Below, in pieces: positions 1 through 64,000 of a DNA stretch of 64,000 bases (the first letter of the stretch is position 1; every line of letters starts with the position of its first letter). The notes below the pieces were generated by a model. It worked only from the letters and a program-made list of their open reading frames with translations, was not told where the DNA came from and did no database searches. Where the stretch lies: assembly GCA_951406725.2 (NCBI GenBank), contig OX597815.1, forward strand, positions 65,596,001 to 65,660,000. The letters run 5' to 3'. Position numbers and translations under genes: made by a program. This DNA comes from Octopus vulgaris (lineage: Eukaryota).

Positions 1-545
1 ATTGGTGAAGAAGATTTCATCTTGTTCAAAAAAGACAACAACAGCAGATGTGACTTCCCACAGTGTTTTTTTCATGTTGGGGAACAGATGATAGTCAGAT
101 GGGGTAAAATTAGGAGAATAGGAAGGGTGATCAACCAGTTCAAAGCTAGTCATGCACAGCAGCCATTGAAACCAAGGACTTGTGTGTTGGAGTATTGTTC
201 TGATGAAACAAGACCCCGCTTCATCAATTTTCCTGGGTGTTTGGTCGTAATAGCCTTTCGTAACAGCCTCAGCAAGTTGGTATAGTACTTCTCATTGATG
301 GTGTGGCCCTTTTGAAGATAGTCAATGAGCACAATGCCTTTTACCCCCCCCCCCCCAAAAAAAAAAAAACGAAGGCTATTACCTTCCCTGCAGATAAAAT
401 GACCTTGGCCTTCTTTGGAGCAAAACGAAGAGGAGTGTTTCCATTGCATGGATTGTCTCTTTGTCTCTAGTTCAATGTGATTAAGCCAACACTCATCATA
501 GTTCAGGCAATCTTCAAGGAAACCAGCCTCTAGCAATGTCAGACT
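1..545 (-). mobile_element. Decayed mariner (DD34D-type) transposase fragment
   Basis: Minus-strand translation gives YDECWLNHIELETKRQSMQWKH and KGIVLIDYLQKGHTINEKYYTNLLRLLRKAI, followed by an HP.YSP.L.PSD-like region: mariner catalytic domain with frameshifts. Runs off the window edge. Confidence 0.85.
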
Positions 546-555
546 TTCCTGTGAC

Positions 556-593
<38 letters not shown>

Positions 594-1995: not shown

Positions 1996-2142
1996 TTACT
2001 TTTTCATTTGAATATAATAAAATTTGTTTATTGTTATGTTTCGGAATGGTCTTCTTTTATTTTATTTTTTGTCAAATAAACACGCCCTATATATTTGTTC
2101 ATCACTCGTTTATTATAGCTCTTGTTTTATCTCATGCCCATT

Positions 2143-2185
2143 GCCAGGAAATCTTTCGTCACACACCTGTGGCCTCTTCAGCGAC
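2143..2185 (-). ncRNA. Hammerhead-ribozyme-like motif, left arm of foldback (opposite polarity)
   Basis: Reverse complement: gtcg-CTGAAGA-ggccaca-ggtg-tgtgac-GAAA-gatt-TC-ctggc. Confidence 0.55.
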
Positions 2186-2265
2186 GTTTCTACACTACAT
2201 GTATCATCCTGTTCTGTTTAGTCCATTCTCTAAACTGAACAGAAGGATACATGTGGGATAGAAGA

Positions 2266-2308
2266 GTCGCTGAAGAGGTCACAGATGTGTGACGAAAGAT
2301 TTCCAGAC
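2266..2308 (+). ncRNA. Hammerhead-ribozyme-like motif (minimal type I), right arm of foldback
   Basis: gtcg-CTGAAGA-g-gtcaca-gatg-tgtgac-GAAA-gatt-TC-cagac: intact core boxes, 6-bp stem II, short near-palindromic stem III. Confidence 0.65.
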
Positions 2309-2785
2309 AATGAACATAAAATAGATTAAGAACAATGATAAACGAGTGAAGAACGAATATATAGCGCGTGTTTATTCGATCAAAAGAAAAAAAAATGACC
2401 ATCCTGAAATGTAACAATAAATGTAACACGAGATTTCACATCAGGAATCTTGCAAAATAAATTCATAAACGCAGCATTCTTTTTTTCAAGTAAAATAATA
2501 TAAAATTGCTGTAATGAAAAGCAAATAATTGACAGTTATTATTTTGAAAAAACAGAGTATTCGGGGAATAGACTGGCCAAAATGCCTGCTCCGATCCTAT
2601 ATTTTTAAGTTGCTGCACGATTTTAATCGGAGAGGTAATGTTATAATCGAAGATTTGAAGGCAAAGTACAATTAGGTCAACTTGAAGAACCTTAACTTTT
2701 TCGATACAATCGAAGAAAGACGTCGAAATCTCACTGCTAATGAGACGAGTTTCTGAAGGGAATGAAATAAATTTTTATATCTCTC

Positions 2786-4905: not shown

Positions 4906-5047
4906 TATATATATATACTACACGTGTTTCAGTATTGGAAGATTATAATATATATATACATATACGCGACTGTATACCCATATATATACATATATAAATA
5001 CATATATGCAATCGACAGATTTACAGTTATTCCAAAGCATCTTAATG

Positions 5048-5248
5048 TGTTAGAAAATCTCCATAACAGAAGAAAACTGTAACTATACTGAGAAGCAATG
5101 TTTATTGCCACTTCAACATGGCTGTTTCAGTAGGAACCGACGTTATTACCATGAAACTGTGGTAGTAACAGAACAACTATGTTCAAGTGGTAATAAACAT
5201 TACTTCTCAGTATGGTTACTGCTTTCATCTCTTATGGAGATTTTCTAA
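5048..5248. repeat. Imperfect foldback (about 80-100 bp arms)
   Basis: ttagaaaatctccataa (5050) pairs with ttatggagattttctaa (5232); atactgagaag/cttctcagtat; inner gttattacca/tggtagtaac. Confidence 0.9.
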
Positions 5249-5349
5249 CTAGCTAATATGCTTGTTGTAAGATCAGTGTCTAATTATCACTTATTTTTCT
5301 GTATATTGTGAGCTAGAACATTCTACTGTTATCTCTAGCAGACGAGTAT

Positions 5350-5397
5350 CCACCACTGAGGATGAGCACATTAGCTCGAAACCGTACGGTCTGTTGG
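5350..5397 (+). ncRNA. Minimal type-I hammerhead ribozyme (Penelope pLTR type)
   Basis: ccacca-CTGAGGA-t-gagc-acatta-gctc-GAAA-ccgtacgg-TC-tgttgg: all core nucleotides, 4-bp stem II, palindromic stem III, GUC cleavage triplet, stem I 5/6 paired. Confidence 0.8.
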
Positions 5398-5538
5398 TCC
5401 CGTCACTGGAAGATTGTAGGGGTTCACTTCCTTGCTTGCAATCTATATCGGGTGCAGATTACATCGACTAACTAGCTGGAAGAGGCATCCTCCTGGGGGT
5501 TAAAATGATAGTAACGTCGGTCCCTACGGAACAGCCAT

Positions 5539-6267: not shown

Positions 6268-6705
6268 TACAAGGTGGTATCAAAAACTTCCCAGACTAGT
6301 TATGTTTAATAAAACAGCTCATTTACTTAAGTTTTAACATCATCTCCTTCGAAATAGTTATCATACGCAGCAATACACCGGTCCCAGTGTTCCTGCAGAT
6401 TTTGGAACCCGGGCCGGAAATTGTTTTCCGTAAAGAGTCGAGGACCTTCTGCAATTCGCTCTGGATCTCGACAATGATGTTAAAACGGCAATTTTTGGGG
6501 AAGAGATGTTAGTCCGCAGGTGCTAAATCTGGCGAATTGGGCGGGAAACTCGCGAGTGAGGAGAGCTCGGTGACGTGGTGCATTGTCGTCATGAAAAATC
6601 CAGTTCTTAGCGCTCTACAGATCCGGTCCTATTGGTCGAATGTCCTCCCTCAAAGACTTCAAAACATCGTTGATTGTCCACCGACGATCGTCATGATGAA
6701 TTTTC
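6268..6705 (-). mobile_element. Mariner 3' fragment with TIR
   Basis: TA + caaggtggtatcaaaaacttcc TIR-like end; minus strand encodes WDRCIAAYDNYFEGDDVKT, a mariner C-terminus. Confidence 0.75.
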
Positions 6706-6724
6706 TCGTATATAAATTGCTTTA

Positions 6725-6920
6725 AAGTTTTGGCACAAGGCCAGAAATTTTGAGGGAGGGGTAGATCGATTCAAGTGCTCAACTGGTACTTATTTTATCG
6801 ACCTCGAACAAATGAAAAGCAAAGTCGACTTCAGCAGAATTTGAACTCAAAACGTAAAGACGGAGGAAATACTCCTAAGCATTTTGCCCAGCGTGCTAAC
6901 GATTCTGCCAGTTCGCTGCT
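6725..6920 (-). mobile_element. SINE family A
   Basis: Reverse complement has gcgaactggcagaatcgttagcac (A box), gagttcaaattc (B box) and the gactttgcttttcat domain. Confidence 0.85.
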
Positions 6921-8241: not shown

Positions 8242-8970
8242 AAAACAACAACACTGACTAAAGCGGTAGTAGCAGCAATAAGGCAAAGAAAGGCAGGCAT
8301 TGACAGCAGCACATTCCCCAGAAGAATTTTTGCATGTTAGAACCAACAACAACAATAACAACAGAAGCAGTAGTAGCAGGAGCGATGCAGAATTTGGTCA
8401 ACTCAGCAAATGCGAAAACAATGACCTCACTAAGAAGGATTATTTTTACCTCTCTACCATCATCAACACTCCATCGTTTTCATCATCACAATAACTACAC
8501 CATCATCATCGTCACTGTCGCCGTCGTTGTCATCAATAGCACTATCACCATCACCACAAACACCATCAACACCAACACCATCATCATCATCATCTTCATT
8601 ATTGTTACCATCATCATTATTGTCCTCACCGTCACCGTCACATACCAGAACCATTCCCGTCACCATCTTTTCACTGCAACCTCTACCATCCCTCTCCCAT
8701 CATTGCCAATAACAATGTCACAGTAATTACTACAAACCCTATCCCTCTCTATCACTGCCACTCACTTTGCTTCACTTAGTATCATCATTCACAACGAATA
8801 CCACTAGAAGCATCAACCCTACATCTCAACTACTAACGCAACCGTTGCATCATAGCTATCGTTACAACCACCACTAACATTACCGCCAACACCAATGCCA
8901 CTAGCACTAACGTCATCTTCATTACCCAATCATGTAAAAAGACACAGGTCTTTGCTCAGAATGCTGGTGG

Positions 8971-9019
8971 ATTCGCAGATACGGTGTTTCGACTTAAGAT
9001 GGCCTCCTCAGTGACGAAT
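8971..9019 (-). ncRNA. Hammerhead-ribozyme-like motif
   Basis: Reverse complement: attcgtca-CTGAGGA-ggc-catcttaa-gtc-GAAA-caccgta-TC-tgcgaat. Stem I attcg(t)ca/tgcgaat; stem III has one mismatch. Confidence 0.6.
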
Positions 9020-9149
9020 AATCCCGACGTTCCGAGCTATGCCGAATATGTTTGTTCCGATATAAACATCTGTAGGGATGGTTGTATTTGATTAAGCCAG
9101 TGACTGTAAACCATGGTCCATATGACCTTTGGGATGGGGTGTCTATATA

Positions 9150-13297: not shown

Positions 13298-13327
13298 AAT
13301 AATAATAATAATAATAATAATAATAAT

Positions 13328-13541
13328 CCTTTCTACTATAGGCACAAGACACGAAATTTGTGAGCAGGGGAAAGGTCGATTACATCGACATCAGTAGTGA
13401 ACTGCTACTTATTCTATCGACCTCGAAAGGATGAAAGGCAAAGTCGACCTCGGCAGAATTTGAACTCAGAAAGTGAAGACGGACGAAATACCGCTAAGCA
13501 TTTTGCCCGACGACCTAATGATTCTGTCAGCTCACCGCCTT
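13328..13541 (-). mobile_element. SINE family A embedded in (AAT)n
   Basis: Full head to tail, (AAT)n on both sides. Confidence 0.85.
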
Positions 13542-13663: not shown

Positions 13664-15112
13664 ATGAAGGAAAAAATAAGAAAGGAATACTATAGGAGAA
13701 TAAGGCTTGTACTGAAGACTGAACTCAACTCCAAAAATTGCATTGAGGCCATTAACACCCTGGCACTTCCAGTAGTCCAGTACAGTTTTAATATCATTAA
13801 CTGGAACCTTACGGAACTCCAACGCTTAGACAGGAAGACAAGAAAGTTACTGACATCCAGGAGCATGCACCACCCTAAGGCAGATGTAGACCGCTTGTAC
13901 CTACCTAGAAGCAGCGGGGGAGAGGAATGATGCAATTAGAGCTGTGCTATAAGACCTCTACTGTAGGAATGAACAGGTACCTATCTAGTACAAAGGACTG
14001 GATGCTGCGACTTGTGCGCGAACACGAAAGCAACAAAAAGCTGCATTCTATTGTCAAGGAAGCTTATAAGTTCGAAAGGGAACTAGACATTAACCTTGAA
14101 TCAGATGAAGAGCCGGAAACCACTGCTACCAAGCAAGCAAAGCGAATCAAGCATACTGCAAAAAAGAACGGGCAGAATCAAATTGAGAGGCGGTGGAGCC
14201 AGAAGCCCCTGCATGGACAATATATTCTCCGAAGCCAAAATGCTGATGTAGACCAAGCAACAACCCATCAGTGGCTGAAGAGCTCTGGATTGAAAGCAGA
14301 GACTGAAGGTTTCATAATGGCAGCACAAGATCAAAGCTTGTTTACCAGAAATTACCAGGCTAACGTTCTCCGAAACGGTACTGACCCTAAATGCAGATTC
14401 TGCGACACATTTGACGAAACGATAGACCATCTCGTTTCGGGATGTCCTGTGCTGACACCAAACGAATACAAAAATCGCCACGATAGGGTAGGACAGTATA
14501 TACATTGGAAGATATGTAAACACTACAAATCCGACACTCCTGCTAACTGGTATGAACACCATCCTCAGCCAGTTGTTGAAGGTAAAGATGTCACCATCCT
14601 CTGGGATTTTCCAGTCAACACTGACAGAACGATCAAGGCTAATCGACCAGACATAATTGTTAAAGACAGGGAAGAAAATACCTGCAGACTAATAGAAGTA
14701 AGCGTCCCCACTGATAAAAATGTATCTGTCAAGGAATTTGACAAACTTAGTAAATATAAGGACCTGGAAATCGAAATACAGAGGATGTGGAATCTTAAAA
14801 CAAAAACTGTTCCTGTTATTTTAGGTGCCCTAGGTATGATAAAAAAGGGATGTCAGAAACACCTGGACAATATCCCTGGAAAACCATGTCTCAAGGAAAT
14901 CCAAAAGATTGTGCTAACAAGTACTGCCCACATCCTTAGAAAAACCCTATCAATGTAAATGTCTGTGTTTGCATTACATGGAGATATATCTCTACTTCCC
15001 CTTCCCAAGCTTTCAGCTATATTTCAACAACTCTTAACCTTCACTTGCCCTAGGGCGCTGGGTGTGCCCCGGCAGGTGATTGCATCAAACATGCAGATTA
15101 AAAGTAAATGAC
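13664..15112 (+). mobile_element. 5'-truncated R4/Dong-clade non-LTR retrotransposon (RT thumb, CCHC knuckle, restriction-like endonuclease)
   Basis: ORFs 13664-13930 and 13927-14958 (one frameshift at GGRG) contain HHPKADVDRLYLPR, CRFCDTFDETIDHLVSGC, RHD, ANRPDIIV and KLSKYKDL. About 150-bp 3' UTR, then (AAT)n. 5' end abuts (AAT)n. Confidence 0.92.
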
Positions 15113-17996: not shown

Positions 17997-18620
17997 CTAC
18001 TAAAAGCACAAGGCCTGCAATTTGGGGGAAGGAACTAGTCGATTACATCAACCCCAGCGTTTTACTGGTACTTAATTTATCGACCCCGATAGGATGAAAG
18101 GCAAAATCAACCTCGGCGAATTTGAACACAGAACGTGGTGGCAGACGAAATACCGCTAAGCATTCACCATGCGTGCTAGCGATTCGGCTAACTCACCGCC
18201 TTGAAAATGGCAATAATAATCCTTTCTATTAAAGGTACAAGGGCCTAGACTGTTGGGGGAGGGGATAGTCGGTTATATCGATTCTAGTACGTAATTGGTA
18301 CTTATTTTATTGACCCCGAAAGAATGAAAGGCAAGGTTGACCTCGGCGGAATTTGAACTCAGAAGATGAAGACAGACGAAATACCTATTTCTTTACTGCC
18401 CACAAGGGGTTAAACACAGAGAGGACAGACAAACGGATTAAGTCGATTACATCGACCCCAGTGCGTAACTGGTACTTATTTAATCGACCCCGAAAGGATG
18501 AAAGGCAAAGTCGACCTCAGCGGAATTTGATCTCAGAACGTAGCAGCAGACGAAATACCGTTAAGCATTTTGCCCTACGTGCTAACGATTCTGCCAACTT
18601 ACAACTTGAAAATGACGATG

Positions 18621-19936: not shown

Positions 19937-19993
19937 CAACATTGAGGAACGGCCCCGATAGGCCATTCGACCCACTAGACTCAAACCGCTAAT

Positions 19994-20081
19994 TCTACCA
20001 ATGCATTGCATTTGGTGTGCAATAATATCGTCCATTGCATCATTTCTGTATGAGTAAATACATATGTGTATGTTTTATATG

Positions 20082-20133
<52 letters not shown>

Positions 20134-20273
20134 AAACATACACATATGTATTTATTCATACAGAAATGATGCAATGGACGATATATATATATATATACAC
20201 ATATGTATTTACTCATACAGAAATGATGCAATGGACGATATTATTGCACAGCAAATGCAATGCATTGGTAGAA
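19994..20273. repeat. (TA)n-centred palindrome with internal tandem duplication
   Basis: ttctaccaatgcattgcatttg...atcgtccattgcatcatttctgtatgag is mirrored on the far side of (TA)n; the catacagaaatgatgcaatggacgatat block occurs twice in the right arm. Confidence 0.9.
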
Positions 20274-21933
20274 TGGTTAGAGAGTTAGACAAAATGCTTA
20301 GGAGCATTTTTTCTGGTACTTGACATCTGGAGTTCGAATCCCAATGAGGTCAACTTTCCATCTTTTGGGAGTCAATAAAATAAAATACTAGTCAAGACCT
20401 GGGGTCGGTGTAATCGACTTAACACTTTTCCTAAAATTGCAGACATGGGGCTTACTTTAGAAAAAAACCCATTATCATCATCATCATCATCAAGGTGACC
20501 AGCTGGCAGAATCGTTAGAGCGTCGGACAAAATACTTAGATGTATTTCTTGCGGTTCTTTACGCTCTAAGTACAGATGCCTCTGAGGTCATCTTAGCCTT
20601 TCATACTTTCAGTTCCGATAAAATAAAAGTACCAGTCAAGTACTGCGGCCAATCGCGAGTATAACCCAGTACTAGTAGTTTATGCTACCAAATGGTACAT
20701 TAGTAGTTCGTACCAATAAAGGGTCCAATACAGAGCCCGAAGAAACTGGTGGTGGTCTGTATTAGCAAACATTATGTAATGAATTTAGAGAGCATGGACA
20801 AGTTCCTATGTCGTAGATAGGATTGTCTTAACCGCAGTGCAGCCAACCCCTCTCTCGAAGCAAAATAATACACTCGGTTCCTAGATACGCAACCACAGCA
20901 TACATCACTAGTCAAAACCTCCTAAACCTATGAATGTTATTGCTTAAAAATTTTTCTTGAACCTTAGGAGTCACAAGGCCGATTACTCGATTTCTATGGT
21001 AATCGGACTTTTTGGAGGGCGGGAAGGGAGAGGGGCAAGTCGATTGCATCAACTCTGGTACTTGATTAGTACTTTATTTTTATCGCTCTCGAAAGGATGA
21101 AAAGCAATGTTGACCTCGGCGGGATTTGAATTCAGAACGTAAAACGCCAAAAGACTTGTCATAAAGCACTTTGTCCAACGTGCTAACGATTCAGCCAGCT
21201 CACAGCCCTTATAAATGTTAAACACGCAGGTATTTTAATATCAAAACAGCTTCAAGTGAGCAAAGCAATTCAGAAAGACTGATTTCTAACTTTGTCAGTA
21301 GGCGACAGGTGTTTAGAGAAGGGAAGAGTTCATTAAATCAATCACAATACGCTACTAGTTACGTATTTTATCGAACCCTGCAGGAAAAAAAGGACCTAGT
21401 GAACTCCCAGTAGGATTTGAACTCAGAATGTGAAATACGCAACTAAGCACAGTATTTGATGGCGCATGGACATGTAAGATGCGCACCAATTTCAGCAGCG
21501 CACATTCAGGAGAGAAGCTTTTAGTGAATTAAAGCACATACTATAGGCCCAATTTCGAATAGAGGTCCTCAGGTTATTTATTTATTTATTTATTTTTAAA
21601 GCTTTTTATTTATTTATTTATTTATTTTTGGTTAAAATCAGTACGTTTCATACGCCGTCTCAGTGTGCACTTTACTGTCACTTAATTTATTCGGAAATAA
21701 AGACTTCAAATTTTGGCACCAGGCCAGCAATTTTGCGGGGATGGGGCTAGTCGAGTACATTGACACCAATACTCAGCTATTACTTATTTTAAAAACCTCG
21801 AAAGGATGAAAGGCAAAGATGATTTCACCGGAAGTGAACTCAGAACATAATGAGTGGGAAGAAATGTTGCCAAGCATTTTCTACGACGTACTAGCAATTT
21901 TGACAACTCACCGCTGAAATGATGATGATGATG

Positions 21934-27512: not shown

Positions 27513-27949
27513 CGTGGTAACATAAAAGAAGCAGCTAAGTTTTAACAGAAACTATTGTCCACAAAAACAAACTAGCACTAGTTGAAAATAGAGCATAAAA
27601 ACCAAATAAGACCAGTGAATTACAATGAAAATATTACACAGTACATGAATATAATTGTAAAACGTTTCATAATATGATAAAATTAGCTCGGCTGTAGCAG
27701 AAAGGATTTTTTGTTTCTTCTTTTTTTTTCTTTTTTGTTTTTAATATTCCGTCTTTGAAATCCGCTGACATTCTCTGTTTTTGTACACATGAACAAATAA
27801 CTTCAACTTTCCTTTTCATGCAAAACCCTAAATCCCTTGTTTCTTAATCTCCTGCCCTCATTATTAATTACCATTTTCATTAAAAAAAAAACGCATCACA
27901 CTATTTCTCTCATCGATCACTTTTGTTCAAGAGACAAGCAGAACGCGTC

Positions 27950-29057: not shown

Positions 29058-31010
<1,953 letters not shown>

Positions 31011-46329: not shown

Positions 46330-47022
46330 TGTTGTATTTTTTGTTAAAGCTCTTTAAACGCCGTGTGTTCATAGTTTGTTTTGTTCACGCGTGAAAGTTT
46401 GTATGTGTTCCTGTGTGAATTGTATAAACATTATTTTTGTTGATGTATAAACGAGAAACAGTAGTGTGTATATGTGTAGAAATTGGAATACAGCGAGAGA
46501 CTGAATTTTTTTTTTTTTTTTCTGTGATTCAGAAAATCGGTTAGCCGGTTTCCATAGTGTATAAGTGACCAAGATCACATCACTGCTTTTGAACCCTGAC
46601 CGGCACGCCTGATGCAAGGTTCACGCTTATTGATCGGTTAATAGACTGATCACGCGAAACCGTGGCTGGTTGATCGTGATGTCTAACTACGTATCCAGGG
46701 ATTCAGTTTTGAATCACCGCTACACAGCATCATTTCTTCATAAAGTATCATTTCTTCTAGATACATTATCACAGCAAAACACTTGCGTAAAAATGTAAGC
46801 AACTCGAGGAGCTACGATATTCGTATACAACAAAACTGAGTATGAGAATTGATCACATATGTATTCCAATTTCTACACATATACACACTACTGTTTCTCG
46901 TTTATACATCAACAAAAATAATGTTTATACAATTCACACAGGAACACATACAAACTTTCACGCGTGAACAAAACAAACTATGAACACACGGCGTTTAAAG
47001 AGCTTTAACAAAAAATACAACA
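46330..47022. repeat. Apparently perfect 163-bp inverted repeat (46330-46492 / 46860-47022), 367-bp spacer
   Basis: tgttgtattttttgttaaagc...gaaattggaataca and its exact reverse complement; no mismatch found by eye; no TSD. Confidence 0.95.
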
Positions 47023-55510: not shown

Positions 55511-55634
55511 AAGATTAATAAAGAACTTCAACTATACTTGTGGTTGGGTCTGAGGTTATGGTTCATCATCATTCAATAGTGTAAATCCATGGTTGTGTTC
55601 CAGTTATACTTGTTTTTACACAAAATGATATACA

Positions 55635-55875
55635 AGACAAGGTATAAATAATGGTCATTATATAGTTTGAATTTATTAGAGTAAATTTGGCTTACAACGG
55701 TTTCCAGTAGTCATTATAGGTTCATTAGTGATAGGTCGTTCAATTTTTCTCAGCTGATCAATAGACCAATTGAGGAAACCTACCAGTAACCTATAATGAT
55801 TTTTGGAAACAGCTGTAAGCCAAATTTACTCCAATAAAGGAAAAATAGGCATTGACCATTATTTATACTTTGTCT
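55635..55875. repeat. Imperfect foldback (about 100-bp arms)
   Basis: agacaaggtataaataatggtca/tgaccattatttatactttgtct; gagtaaatttggcttaca/tgtaagccaaatttactc; tcattataggtt/aacctataatga. Confidence 0.9.
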
Positions 55876-56392
55876 GATATATATGTAAAAAGATACAAAC
55901 TGGGACAAGAACGCAAAACATTTAGAAGACGATACAAAAAACACGGACGGGACGGGACATTCGAAGCCTTCAATCTTCAGTCAAGAACCGGATCATCCTC
56001 GAAATTTCGGCTGATTAATCTTGAGATTGCTCCGATCTGGCCAGCCCCAAAGGAAAATCTAAGCCAAGCGCATTAGATTCCTTGGAAGAAAGCCTCGAAT
56101 GTATACAAAACAAGGACGGAAAACGGACGATGTTATACGAATAAGAATACAAAAATACGTAAAAACAATAATGATAATAATAATATCAAAAACAGGACGT
56201 CACAGACAGGCGTCTTTCGACAGGACGAGTAAACTTTGAGCTGGCCTGTTAGAAAAATGTCTTAGGGCAGAGAGAGAAAAAATGTATCTTGCCGCGACGA
56301 CTGCTAAGCACGAAAGGCCGGCAATCGGTCAGTCATGTGTGAGGAGAAGAGAAAGAAAATGTATATATATAGCGACGCCCGTACCCTTTTGT

Positions 56393-62237: not shown

Positions 62238-64000
62238 CACGCACACACACATATGTACATAAATATGTTTGTGCGTATATACATATAAATGTATTTACTT
62301 TTAATCAGCACTTATATGCATGCGTATGCCCACACACGCACGCATACATGCACACACACACACACACACTTCATCTATCCATTCACCTACCTAGCTATCT
62401 ATCCGACTACCCTCTCTCTCCCGTTCCGTGTACCCGAATGCACCAGATGCATCCCTTCTGCCTGCTTTTTCCCAGTTGACATCTACTTACCCTCTCCATC
62501 ACTTTCTCTCTTCCCCCGCCCCCCTCTCTCTGTTTCTCTCTCACCTTCTTTCACTCCCCACAAATCAACCCAGTTCCAATGTCAAAACACCCTCACAGCT
62601 GTGTCTAAAAGTGCACGTGAACCGCTTTCTCCACTTAACACAAGCCGTTGTTTGAGAACGGTTCGAGCGGGGATGGCGGCGATGGAGGCGATGGCGGCGA
62701 AGGTGGTGATGGCGGAGATGGTGAGGACGGTGGTGGTGATGGTGGTGGAGAGAGAAAGGCCATCTATTGTGCGGAGGCTTTTATGGAAAGTATTGTGCCA
62801 AATAAGCATAATCTAACAGAAGGAAGAGGGGGAATGAGATACAAAGGGATAAATACAAAGGTAATGGGTGAAGGGTTAAGCAAAAGACTAAAAAAAAAAT
62901 CAATAGTAAATTTTGAAACTGGTTACATATTTATTAACCAATCACAACAGGCGTACAGCTGCTAATTTATGTTAATTTATGCACACACGACCCGGCTGGA
63001 AATTCGTCGCTCAATCGTTGAGTTTTTTTCATTTTATATTATGTTGATAATAAGGTTAATGCGGATCTTCTATGTGAGCGAGTGCATGCGTGCATATGTG
63101 TTGTGTGTGCTGCGCGCGCGCGTATGCAATCGCGGGCAGGTGCTTTATTTGTGCCTCTGTGTGTAATGTATGCTTGTGTATGTATGTATGTATGTATGTA
63201 TGTATGTATGTATGTATGTATGTATGTATCTATATCTATGTATGTATGTGTGCGCGTATGCGCGAGAGCGTGTAGTTGTTTTATGCGTGCATCCGTGTGT
63301 ATCAGTGACTGTGTGTGTTCAAAAGTATGTGGACGGGCGAGTGCGTGTTCTCGTCTAACATTAGCGGAAATAAAATTAGGCAAGTGCATACATTCATCTC
63401 TCACACACACAAAGACATAAGCACACAAGAACACCTACATACTTGCATGCATACACGCACACACACATACACACACACACACAATGTAACAGGAATCGTG
63501 AGATCATTTTCATTTCTACTGTAAGTACATATGCACCCAGAGCTGAATTGCCGTGCAACGATTCACAGCTGGTTTTTTTATATTTGGTTGGCAAGGTTAT
63601 TGTTGTGAACTCATACGTAGAAACATATTTCGTTGTATCTCGGGAGGGTCGTTATGCTAATAATGAACACAGGCCTTCGTTCTATTTCAATTCTTTATTG
63701 TTATTCGTCGATCGGTTAAGTATTTAAACAATTTATTGCTTGTTTGATCAATCGATTAATCACTTGGTTAAATGGTTAACCGATTCACGAATAGCAATAA
63801 AGAAATGAAATAGAACCAAGAATGTGTTTATTATTGGCATAATGACCCTCCTGAGATACAACTAAAGTTTATAACTCCCCCGGGGCCATGTACATGCACA
63901 TCGAAACCTCCAGCTTCTATATCCAGACTATGAATTCCTATTCATACCACAAATAATTGGAACACTAGGTTTTGTTAGTAAATGCTTAAAGGAGAATCTG

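Follow-up and report, generated by a model that had tools for sequence, protein, structure and literature searches.

The fold-back near the start of the window (the whole 64,000-nucleotide stretch of Octopus vulgaris DNA that was analysed) is very likely an old and now decaying insertion in which a high-copy repeat of the Penelope-like element (PLE) type lies head-to-head in two truncated copies. By the features examined it is not a retrozyme or a viroid-like RNA. On this reading, hammerhead motifs occur on both of its strands for the only reason that a hammerhead-bearing repeat has been duplicated. An earlier reading of this DNA, made from the letters only, had derived the structure from PLE-type pLTRs that stand head-to-head and carry minimal type I hammerheads (min-HHRs), and this derivation is supported by the motif and by the geometry. 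PLE identity is drawn from these two only, because no reverse transcriptase (RT) or GIY-YIG coding sequence was linked to the repeat. The features are as follows.

2027..2229, minus strand: left copy, a 5'-truncated pLTR-like repeat with no tail (arm alignment); the 8-nt loop is included as its presumed own upstream sequence
2222..2229, no strand: loop of 8 nt, the probable offset between two 5' truncation points (folding, contig depth)
2230..2421, plus strand: right copy, as far as it is paired with the left one (arm alignment, contig piece starts)
2422..2470, plus strand: tail-like extension, present on the right copy only and belonging to the same repeat family (contig depth, pieces, loose ends)
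2266..2308, plus strand: minimal type I hammerhead motif (motif scan, folding); core 2270-2277 with an extra nucleotide, helix II 2278-2293 (6 bp), GAAA 2294-2297, predicted cut after 2303
2143..2185, minus strand: mirror minimal hammerhead motif, decayed (arm alignment, folding); helix II has C.A as its second pair
2395..2460, plus strand: ATG-started frame of 21 codons (translation), of which 9 lie in the paired arm and the others in the tail

Geometry of the fold-back and divergence of its arms

The arms are inverted with respect to each other, 2027-2221 pairing with 2230-2421 around the loop. In a global alignment 156 of the 192 columns are identical (81%), and there are 24 transitions, 12 transversions and 3 gap columns. 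The two inverted arms of ~200 bp, ~80% identical around an 8-nt loop, that the sequence-only reading had described are thus real. The minimum free energy is -215.5 kcal/mol on the plus strand and -218.6 kcal/mol on the minus strand (z of -27.5 and -26.7, respectively), and none of 100 shuffles on either strand was as stable as the fold-back. The rod-like fold of ~400 nt that had been proposed agrees well with these values (z about -27 on both strands). The extent assigned to it, 2023..2425, holds for the paired arms but not for the right end, the right copy reaching ~2470.

The window is AT-rich, microsatellite-rich, non-coding DNA in which other inverted pairs are present. The fold-back at 63618-63873 lacks both a loop and a hammerhead, and only one of its arms carries a tail-like extension. 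When its arms were paired with those of the fold-back at 2027-2421, the left arm matched the right copy over the 3' half and tail of the latter with a score of 53, equalled by 0 of 500 shuffles; the remaining three pairings are weak, with 4, 49 and 284 of 500 shuffles as good. At 4988-5309 there is a head-to-head fold-back (close pair 5035-5263) with arms about 76% identical, the right copy of which continues into a min-HHR-like motif at + 5356 (5345-5410) with a palindromic helix III, while the left copy stops earlier. The pairs at 63618-63873 and 5035-5263 make fold-backs seem generic in the window, with or without a ribozyme. The fold-back at 55596-55950 has a short loop, and its right copy continues into a frame at 55849-56073. 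The 163-bp inverted arms at 46330-46492 and 46860-47022 are 100% identical and separated by a 367-bp spacer; this is a young inverted-repeat element with no target-site duplication (TSD) visible by eye. Another inverted pair, at 19980-20282, has near-identical outer parts and a (TA)n-rich centre. At least 15 copies of a SINE-like repeat of ~170-230 bp are also present, some of them back to back (6700-6870, 13320-13490, 18210-18560, 30330-30790 and others).

The region 1888-2637 was compared at 80% likeness with 4 of the 24 listed public runs, all of them as contigs. Three (X1, X14 and X20) are DNA runs with three organism labels, and X22 is guessed to be RNA. The joints, between-joint letters and pieces described below are the best 15 of 222, 12 of 48 and 32 of 13,055, respectively. 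Letters private to one arm were counted against the X1 majority letters in the best 40 of 212 rows shown. On this basis the right arm has 9 private differences and the left arm 8; in two columns neither arm has the family letter, and at four positions the arms agree with each other against the family majority. The 9/8 private and 4 shared positions fit one template followed by equal drift. The 36 differences between the arms make a wobble G.U pair on the plus RNA in 12 cases and on the minus RNA in 12 cases. They look neutral, to judge from the letters, with no strand bias. A change confined to the left arm, at 2172, disrupts the second helix II pair. Judged from the row for 2146 (mirror 2305), both arms also depart from the family letter at the second position of helix I.

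The repeat family, its ends and its junctions

Contig depth summed over the hammerhead (2263-2312) is a rough measure and does not give true copy numbers. It amounts to 172-187 thousand for X1, 30-35 thousand for X14 and 420-510 thousand for X20; single-contig flank depth is about 15-18, 6-10 and 48-64, respectively. The core depth is thousands of times the flank depth, and the arm therefore has roughly thousands of copies (order 10^3-10^4). It is a dispersed high-copy repeat in X1, X14 and X20, and upstream of 2262 the sequence is a different one in most copies (147, 82 and 159 contigs). The view that the structure is not a one-off accident is accordingly upheld for the arm, which is a repeat of thousands of copies across three species labels. 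X22 holds pieces of the family and does not cover the flanks of the locus; it is uninformative on expression. Metagenome, prokaryote-genome and viral contigs, when scanned for the exact motif, gave 0 matches each, as expected for an animal repeat.

The depth changes sharply at the loop. At 2236, just to the right of it, the depth is 0.50-0.57% of the core depth in the three runs, and over 2213-2231 the implied depth exceeds the value at 2236 by a factor of 3.5-3.7, which means that most contigs reaching the loop from the left stop there. Among the best 32 of 13,055 pieces, 6 start at 2230-2231; one of these (X14 record 11) has 232 unaligned letters before its start. The letters between joints continue the loop sequence in the best 12 of 48 rows. 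We infer that the loop is upstream sequence belonging to the left copy, and that the truncation points of the two copies lie 8-10 nt from each other.

Among the best 15 of 222 joints there are at least 11 distinct ones that link the left arm or the loop to the right copy on the same strand, and their 11 junctions all differ. All of these are in X20 at about one-contig depth and land at 2262-2440; where given, their sides are 20-48 letters long, and the short-sided joints may be misalignments. As read from the contig letters, the listed joints are other head-to-head pairs with other junctions, so that inverted, 5'-truncated copies with variable junctions belong to the family. The loop is crossed by 2 of the best 32 of 13,055 pieces (X1 record 2 and X20 record 18), at about 84% identity and with 3-4 gaps, neither having the 31 letters to the left of the loop that come under the bridging rule. 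These two pieces suggest that similar junctions are present at other loci. Recurrence of the whole unit is bounded at well under 1% of the family, with an upper bound of about 0.5% of the depth, in contigs that fragment and collapse young perfect palindromes; a small minority of hairpins may have been re-mobilised. The expectation that the family recurs as an arm-loop-arm unit is largely not borne out: single-arm copies dominate, the depth past the loop is small, and the 11 listed junctions differ.

Four of the 11 listed joints, all in X20 and one contig each, land at 2289-2294, in the 3' strand of helix II. The clustering has a post hoc p of 0.025-0.16 on a tool-selected subset. We suggest, only tentatively and as something rather unlikely, that helix II is a stall or fold-back point of PLE reverse transcription, or that one asymmetric junction was re-mobilised as a non-autonomous inverted-pLTR subfamily. 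If there were a stall at helix II, the min-HHR would gain a structural role in PLE 5' inversions.

The two copies have different 3' ends. The left copy halts at the mirror of 2421 and the right copy at 2469-2471. Family depth is high again at 2438-2462 (47,414 in X1, 12,345 in X14 and 200,730 in X20), listed pieces at 2247-2457 and 2283-2461 extend from the arm into the tail, and loose ends at 2469-2471 number 48-99 contigs per position in each DNA run, with flanks that are unlike one another (agreement 0.44-0.46). The tail depth, the arm-to-tail pieces and the loose ends make the right copy about 49 nt longer than the left, in the manner of a PLE tail. The extension is present on one copy only, and its length compares with a published 30-40 nt. 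The ATG frame at 2395..2460 is possibly the start of the ORF of the parent element, to judge weakly from its likeness to published PLE anatomy; it gave no Pfam match.

No TSD was found in the flanks, where the best repeats are 6-7 nt long with inconsistent offsets; the insert is old. The TIR/TSD features of a DNA MITE, which the sequence-only reading had named as evidence against itself, were likewise not seen, there being no TA or other TSD and the ends being asymmetric. Contigs running from the flank into the left arm occur under two other species labels (X14 1891-2109, X20 1930-2115), and the insert is therefore old and retained. At 1960-2015 and 2490-2560 X1 has an exact flank contig as well as flank contigs with the X14/X20 letters, which suggests, from the letters concerned, that X1 has a further copy of the segment, either a paralogue or a very divergent allele.

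A pathway can be proposed for such an insertion. The RT/GIY-YIG protein of an autonomous PLE would drive target-primed reverse transcription of the pLTR RNA, and synthesis would stop about 40 nt upstream of the hammerhead. Fold-back or a template switch would then cause the same sequence to be copied in the opposite direction, the 8-nt loop being the offset between the two stop points. Truncation would be so extensive that only pLTR sequence is deposited, comprising a right copy at 2230-2470 with a ~50-nt tail and a left copy at 2229-2027 without one.

Alternatively, a solo pLTR could have been inserted first and the inverted copy made later at the DNA level, by snap-back repair or inversion-duplication. 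This is improbable. It too would give two arms from one template, as seen in the 4 shared positions, and a short spacer, and no TSD was found. However, the left copy stops where the tail would begin in the repeat itself and includes no DNA of the right flank, and the 63.6-kb fold-back has an end of the same asymmetry. Furthermore, a property of the element is indicated by the 11 or more other head-to-head joints of one run and by the several fold-backs of the window.

Hammerhead motifs within the rod

The sequence-only reading had also placed an outward-reading hammerhead-like core on each strand, and such cores do start at + 2270 and - 2181, 89 nt apart. One extra G separates helix II from the CUGANGA box. 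Helix III consists of only A-U, G.U and two loop bases, its self-duplex having 0.0 kcal/mol in the folding model, and helix I of both arms is short and forms only with a bulge. Helix II of the left (minus) motif is broken by the C.A mismatch; the pairing letter at 2172 is present in 84% of the X1 depth. When the right copy is folded alone the probability of helix II is 0.90-0.98, compared to 0.17 or less for the left copy alone. Type I topology, the extra nucleotide and the long helix II of a min-HHR are all present in the motif, which is thus a predicted ribozyme. The arms are somewhat more alike in the hammerhead region, with differences at 4 of 43 positions compared to 32 of 149 elsewhere (Fisher p 0.079), which points away from drift.

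No hammerhead in the whole window matched Rfam at the gathering score, and the Infernal scan that had been suggested gave 0 hammerheads among 20 matches (Rfam, E<=10, 1900-2600). The miRNA matches in Rfam are generic hairpin matches far under gathering and were rejected. As Rfam gave no hammerhead match, the ribozyme call is made from the motif and its alignment with published min-HHRs only. A loose core pattern has 12 matches in the window, 10 of which are outside the fold-back pair, and by itself such a pattern is weak evidence. A solo min-HHR-like motif at 8955-9025 on the minus strand (core 9011) belongs to another sequence family, with no close inverted partner listed.

The head-to-head arrangement places the sense hammerhead of each strand in the second arm, after its own complement. 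Read-through RNA from either strand would zip into the rod before the hammerhead is complete. ViennaRNA closes the rod as soon as 20-30 nt of the second arm have been made, and the predicted probability of helix II is 0.0 in all prefixes that contain it, on both strands. The hammerhead fold would cost 63.8 (plus) and 70.8 (minus) kcal/mol in the rod, and 60.4 and 66.8 kcal/mol in the nascent RNA, in a folding model without tertiary or protein terms. Hammerhead folding in both polarities during transcription, as is characteristic of viroid-like RNAs, is thus not predicted. The head-to-tail units with at least 2 same-strand hammerheads that define retrozymes are not present either; there is one motif per strand, and the only other copy of the arm in the window is the inverted one (blast matches to the arm at 27716, 48031 and 44619 are of low complexity and were rejected). 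With one cut per strand and no tandem unit, no monomer or circle would be released. The locus is most likely a dead-end and at most, by the folding model, a source of long double-stranded RNA; it would not be a self-processing replicon.

These results bear directly on the proposal that the structure belongs to a non-autonomous, self-processing hairpin retro-RNA family, which moves as an arm-loop-arm unit and is cleaved in both polarities. The rod is strong on both strands, both cores are intact, the loop is crossed by 2 of the best 32 of 13,055 pieces and 4 of the listed joints share the landing at 2289-2294. Moreover, pelamoviroid hammerheads fold during transcription despite the rod (PMC11722881). 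Nevertheless, depth past the loop is about 0.5% of the core even with single arms starting at 2230 included, junctions vary between loci, the 12:12 pattern of wobble pairs is neutral and the left helix II is broken. The complement is transcribed before the ribozyme, and each strand would have one cut and no tandem unit; min-HHR monomers are reported to be inactive in vitro (PMC4209133). The proposal is therefore very improbable: both ribozymes would be sequestered in the rod, as modelled, arm drift is unbiased and there is one cleavage site per polarity.

Two further possibilities have hardly any standing. A DNA transposon MITE or Foldback element with a hammerhead-like motif in long TIRs would account for the long inverted arms, the lack of coding capacity and the mariner-type remnant at 153-593, but not for the one-sided 50-nt extension, the prevalence of single arms or other junctions, the PLE-typical min-HHR architecture or the want of symmetric, fixed termini with a TSD. 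A fold-back kept as a functional hairpin RNA, either an endo-siRNA source or an editing substrate that silences the family, would fit the old, retained insert (X14 and X20 flank contigs) and would give a 400-nt duplex if transcribed, but the 36 differences have no strand bias or compensation and the arms are 19% diverged.

Relation to Penelope-like elements, retrozymes and viroids

Pfam searches gave no RT or GIY-YIG match on the translations of arm and tail, in which the fragments are short, and nothing relevant on 11 read-through fragments. On 136/152 higher-complexity frames of at least 70 aa in the window, only a mariner-type transposase remnant was above the cut-off (153-593, minus strand; PF01359, E 2.9e-09). 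A 349-codon frame at 13909-14955 (+) has a weak zf-RVT match below the cut-off (E 5e-04) and is probably a LINE remnant. The frame at 55849-56073 was taken by us to resemble a GIY-YIG remnant. This was not confirmed, Pfam giving nothing and the 2 matches in 1.84 billion proteins being repetitive and judged spurious. The left copy begins with a peptide, 'NGLN', that may resemble the end of a PLE endonuclease. No tRNA genes were found in the window. A literature search of mostly non-subscription papers, outside Repbase, gave no description of the repeat family or of a self-propagating inverted-pLTR hairpin.

The nearest likeness is to head-to-head pLTR insertions of endonuclease-positive PLEs (PMC3846280, PMC8557442). 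In the account of Arkhipova et al. (2013) head-to-head is the commonest arrangement and junctions are palindromic, one inverted pLTR may carry an optional tail, the first 12 codons of the ORF lie in the pLTR (22 with the tail), and inserts often, but not always, have a TSD (PMC3846280). Craig et al. (2021) describe an inverted 5'-truncated copy adjoining the 5' end, together with a one-end tail of 30-40 bp, as usual PLE features (PMC8557442), and Frangieh et al. (2024) link the tail to two RT start sites (PMC11167929). The fold-back has the same adjacent inverted 5'-truncated copy and palindromic junction, and it shares the one-copy tail, an ATG frame across the repeat end and tail, and an AT-rich site. 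It differs in having no ORF between the repeats, an extension of about 49 nt instead of 30-40 and no TSD that could be found.

The hammerhead motif resembles that of metazoan PLEs. According to Cervera and De la Pena (2014), PLE min-HHRs have an extra nucleotide between 9 and 10.1, a G10.1-C11.1 pair, a long helix II and a tiny palindromic helix III; there are thousands per genome, mostly single, and dual min-HHRs lie about 100-700 bp apart on opposite strands (PMC4209133). The motif has the same extra nucleotide, G10.1-C11.1 pair and palindromic helix III, with a 6-bp helix II, and there are likewise thousands of dispersed copies and a close opposite-strand pair (PMC4209133). The spacing of 89 nt is just under the published range, and helix I is bulged in both arms. 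In the same source a min-HHR monomer is not cleaved in vitro and dimers are cleaved at a low level (PMC4209133), and Frangieh et al. (2024) find the PLE hammerhead to be protein-assisted and dispensable in vitro (PMC11167929). There are thus published precedents both for truncated pLTRs that stand head-to-head with a tail on one side and for dual min-HHRs on opposite strands (PMC3846280, PMC8557442, PMC4209133). The locus itself matters little, being very likely a textbook by-product of PLE insertion. The family, with thousands of copies in several related species, is a natural data set on how the tandem and inverted structures of PLEs form.

Animal non-LTR retrozymes are also non-coding, 170-400 nt long and pLTR-derived, with a type I hammerhead (PMC7229834; bioRxiv 10.64898/2026.07.22.740005). 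Unlike the inverted pair with one motif per strand described here, they are head-to-tail tandem repeats that need two successive hammerheads on the same strand and from which circles are released (PMC7229834; bioRxiv 10.64898/2026.07.22.740005). The Avsunviroidae and the retroviroid CarSV have the same rod-like fold with facing hammerheads in both polarities, and in pelamoviroids the hammerheads that lie opposite one another within the rod nevertheless fold transiently during transcription (PMC11722881). These are circular replicons with head-to-tail multimers, whereas the fold-back is a chromosomal palindrome that contains two copies of one motif and gives no sign of circles or multimers. Some caution is therefore needed in the search for viroid-like RNAs, because hammerheads of both polarities in a genomic rod can arise by simple inverted duplication and mimic them.
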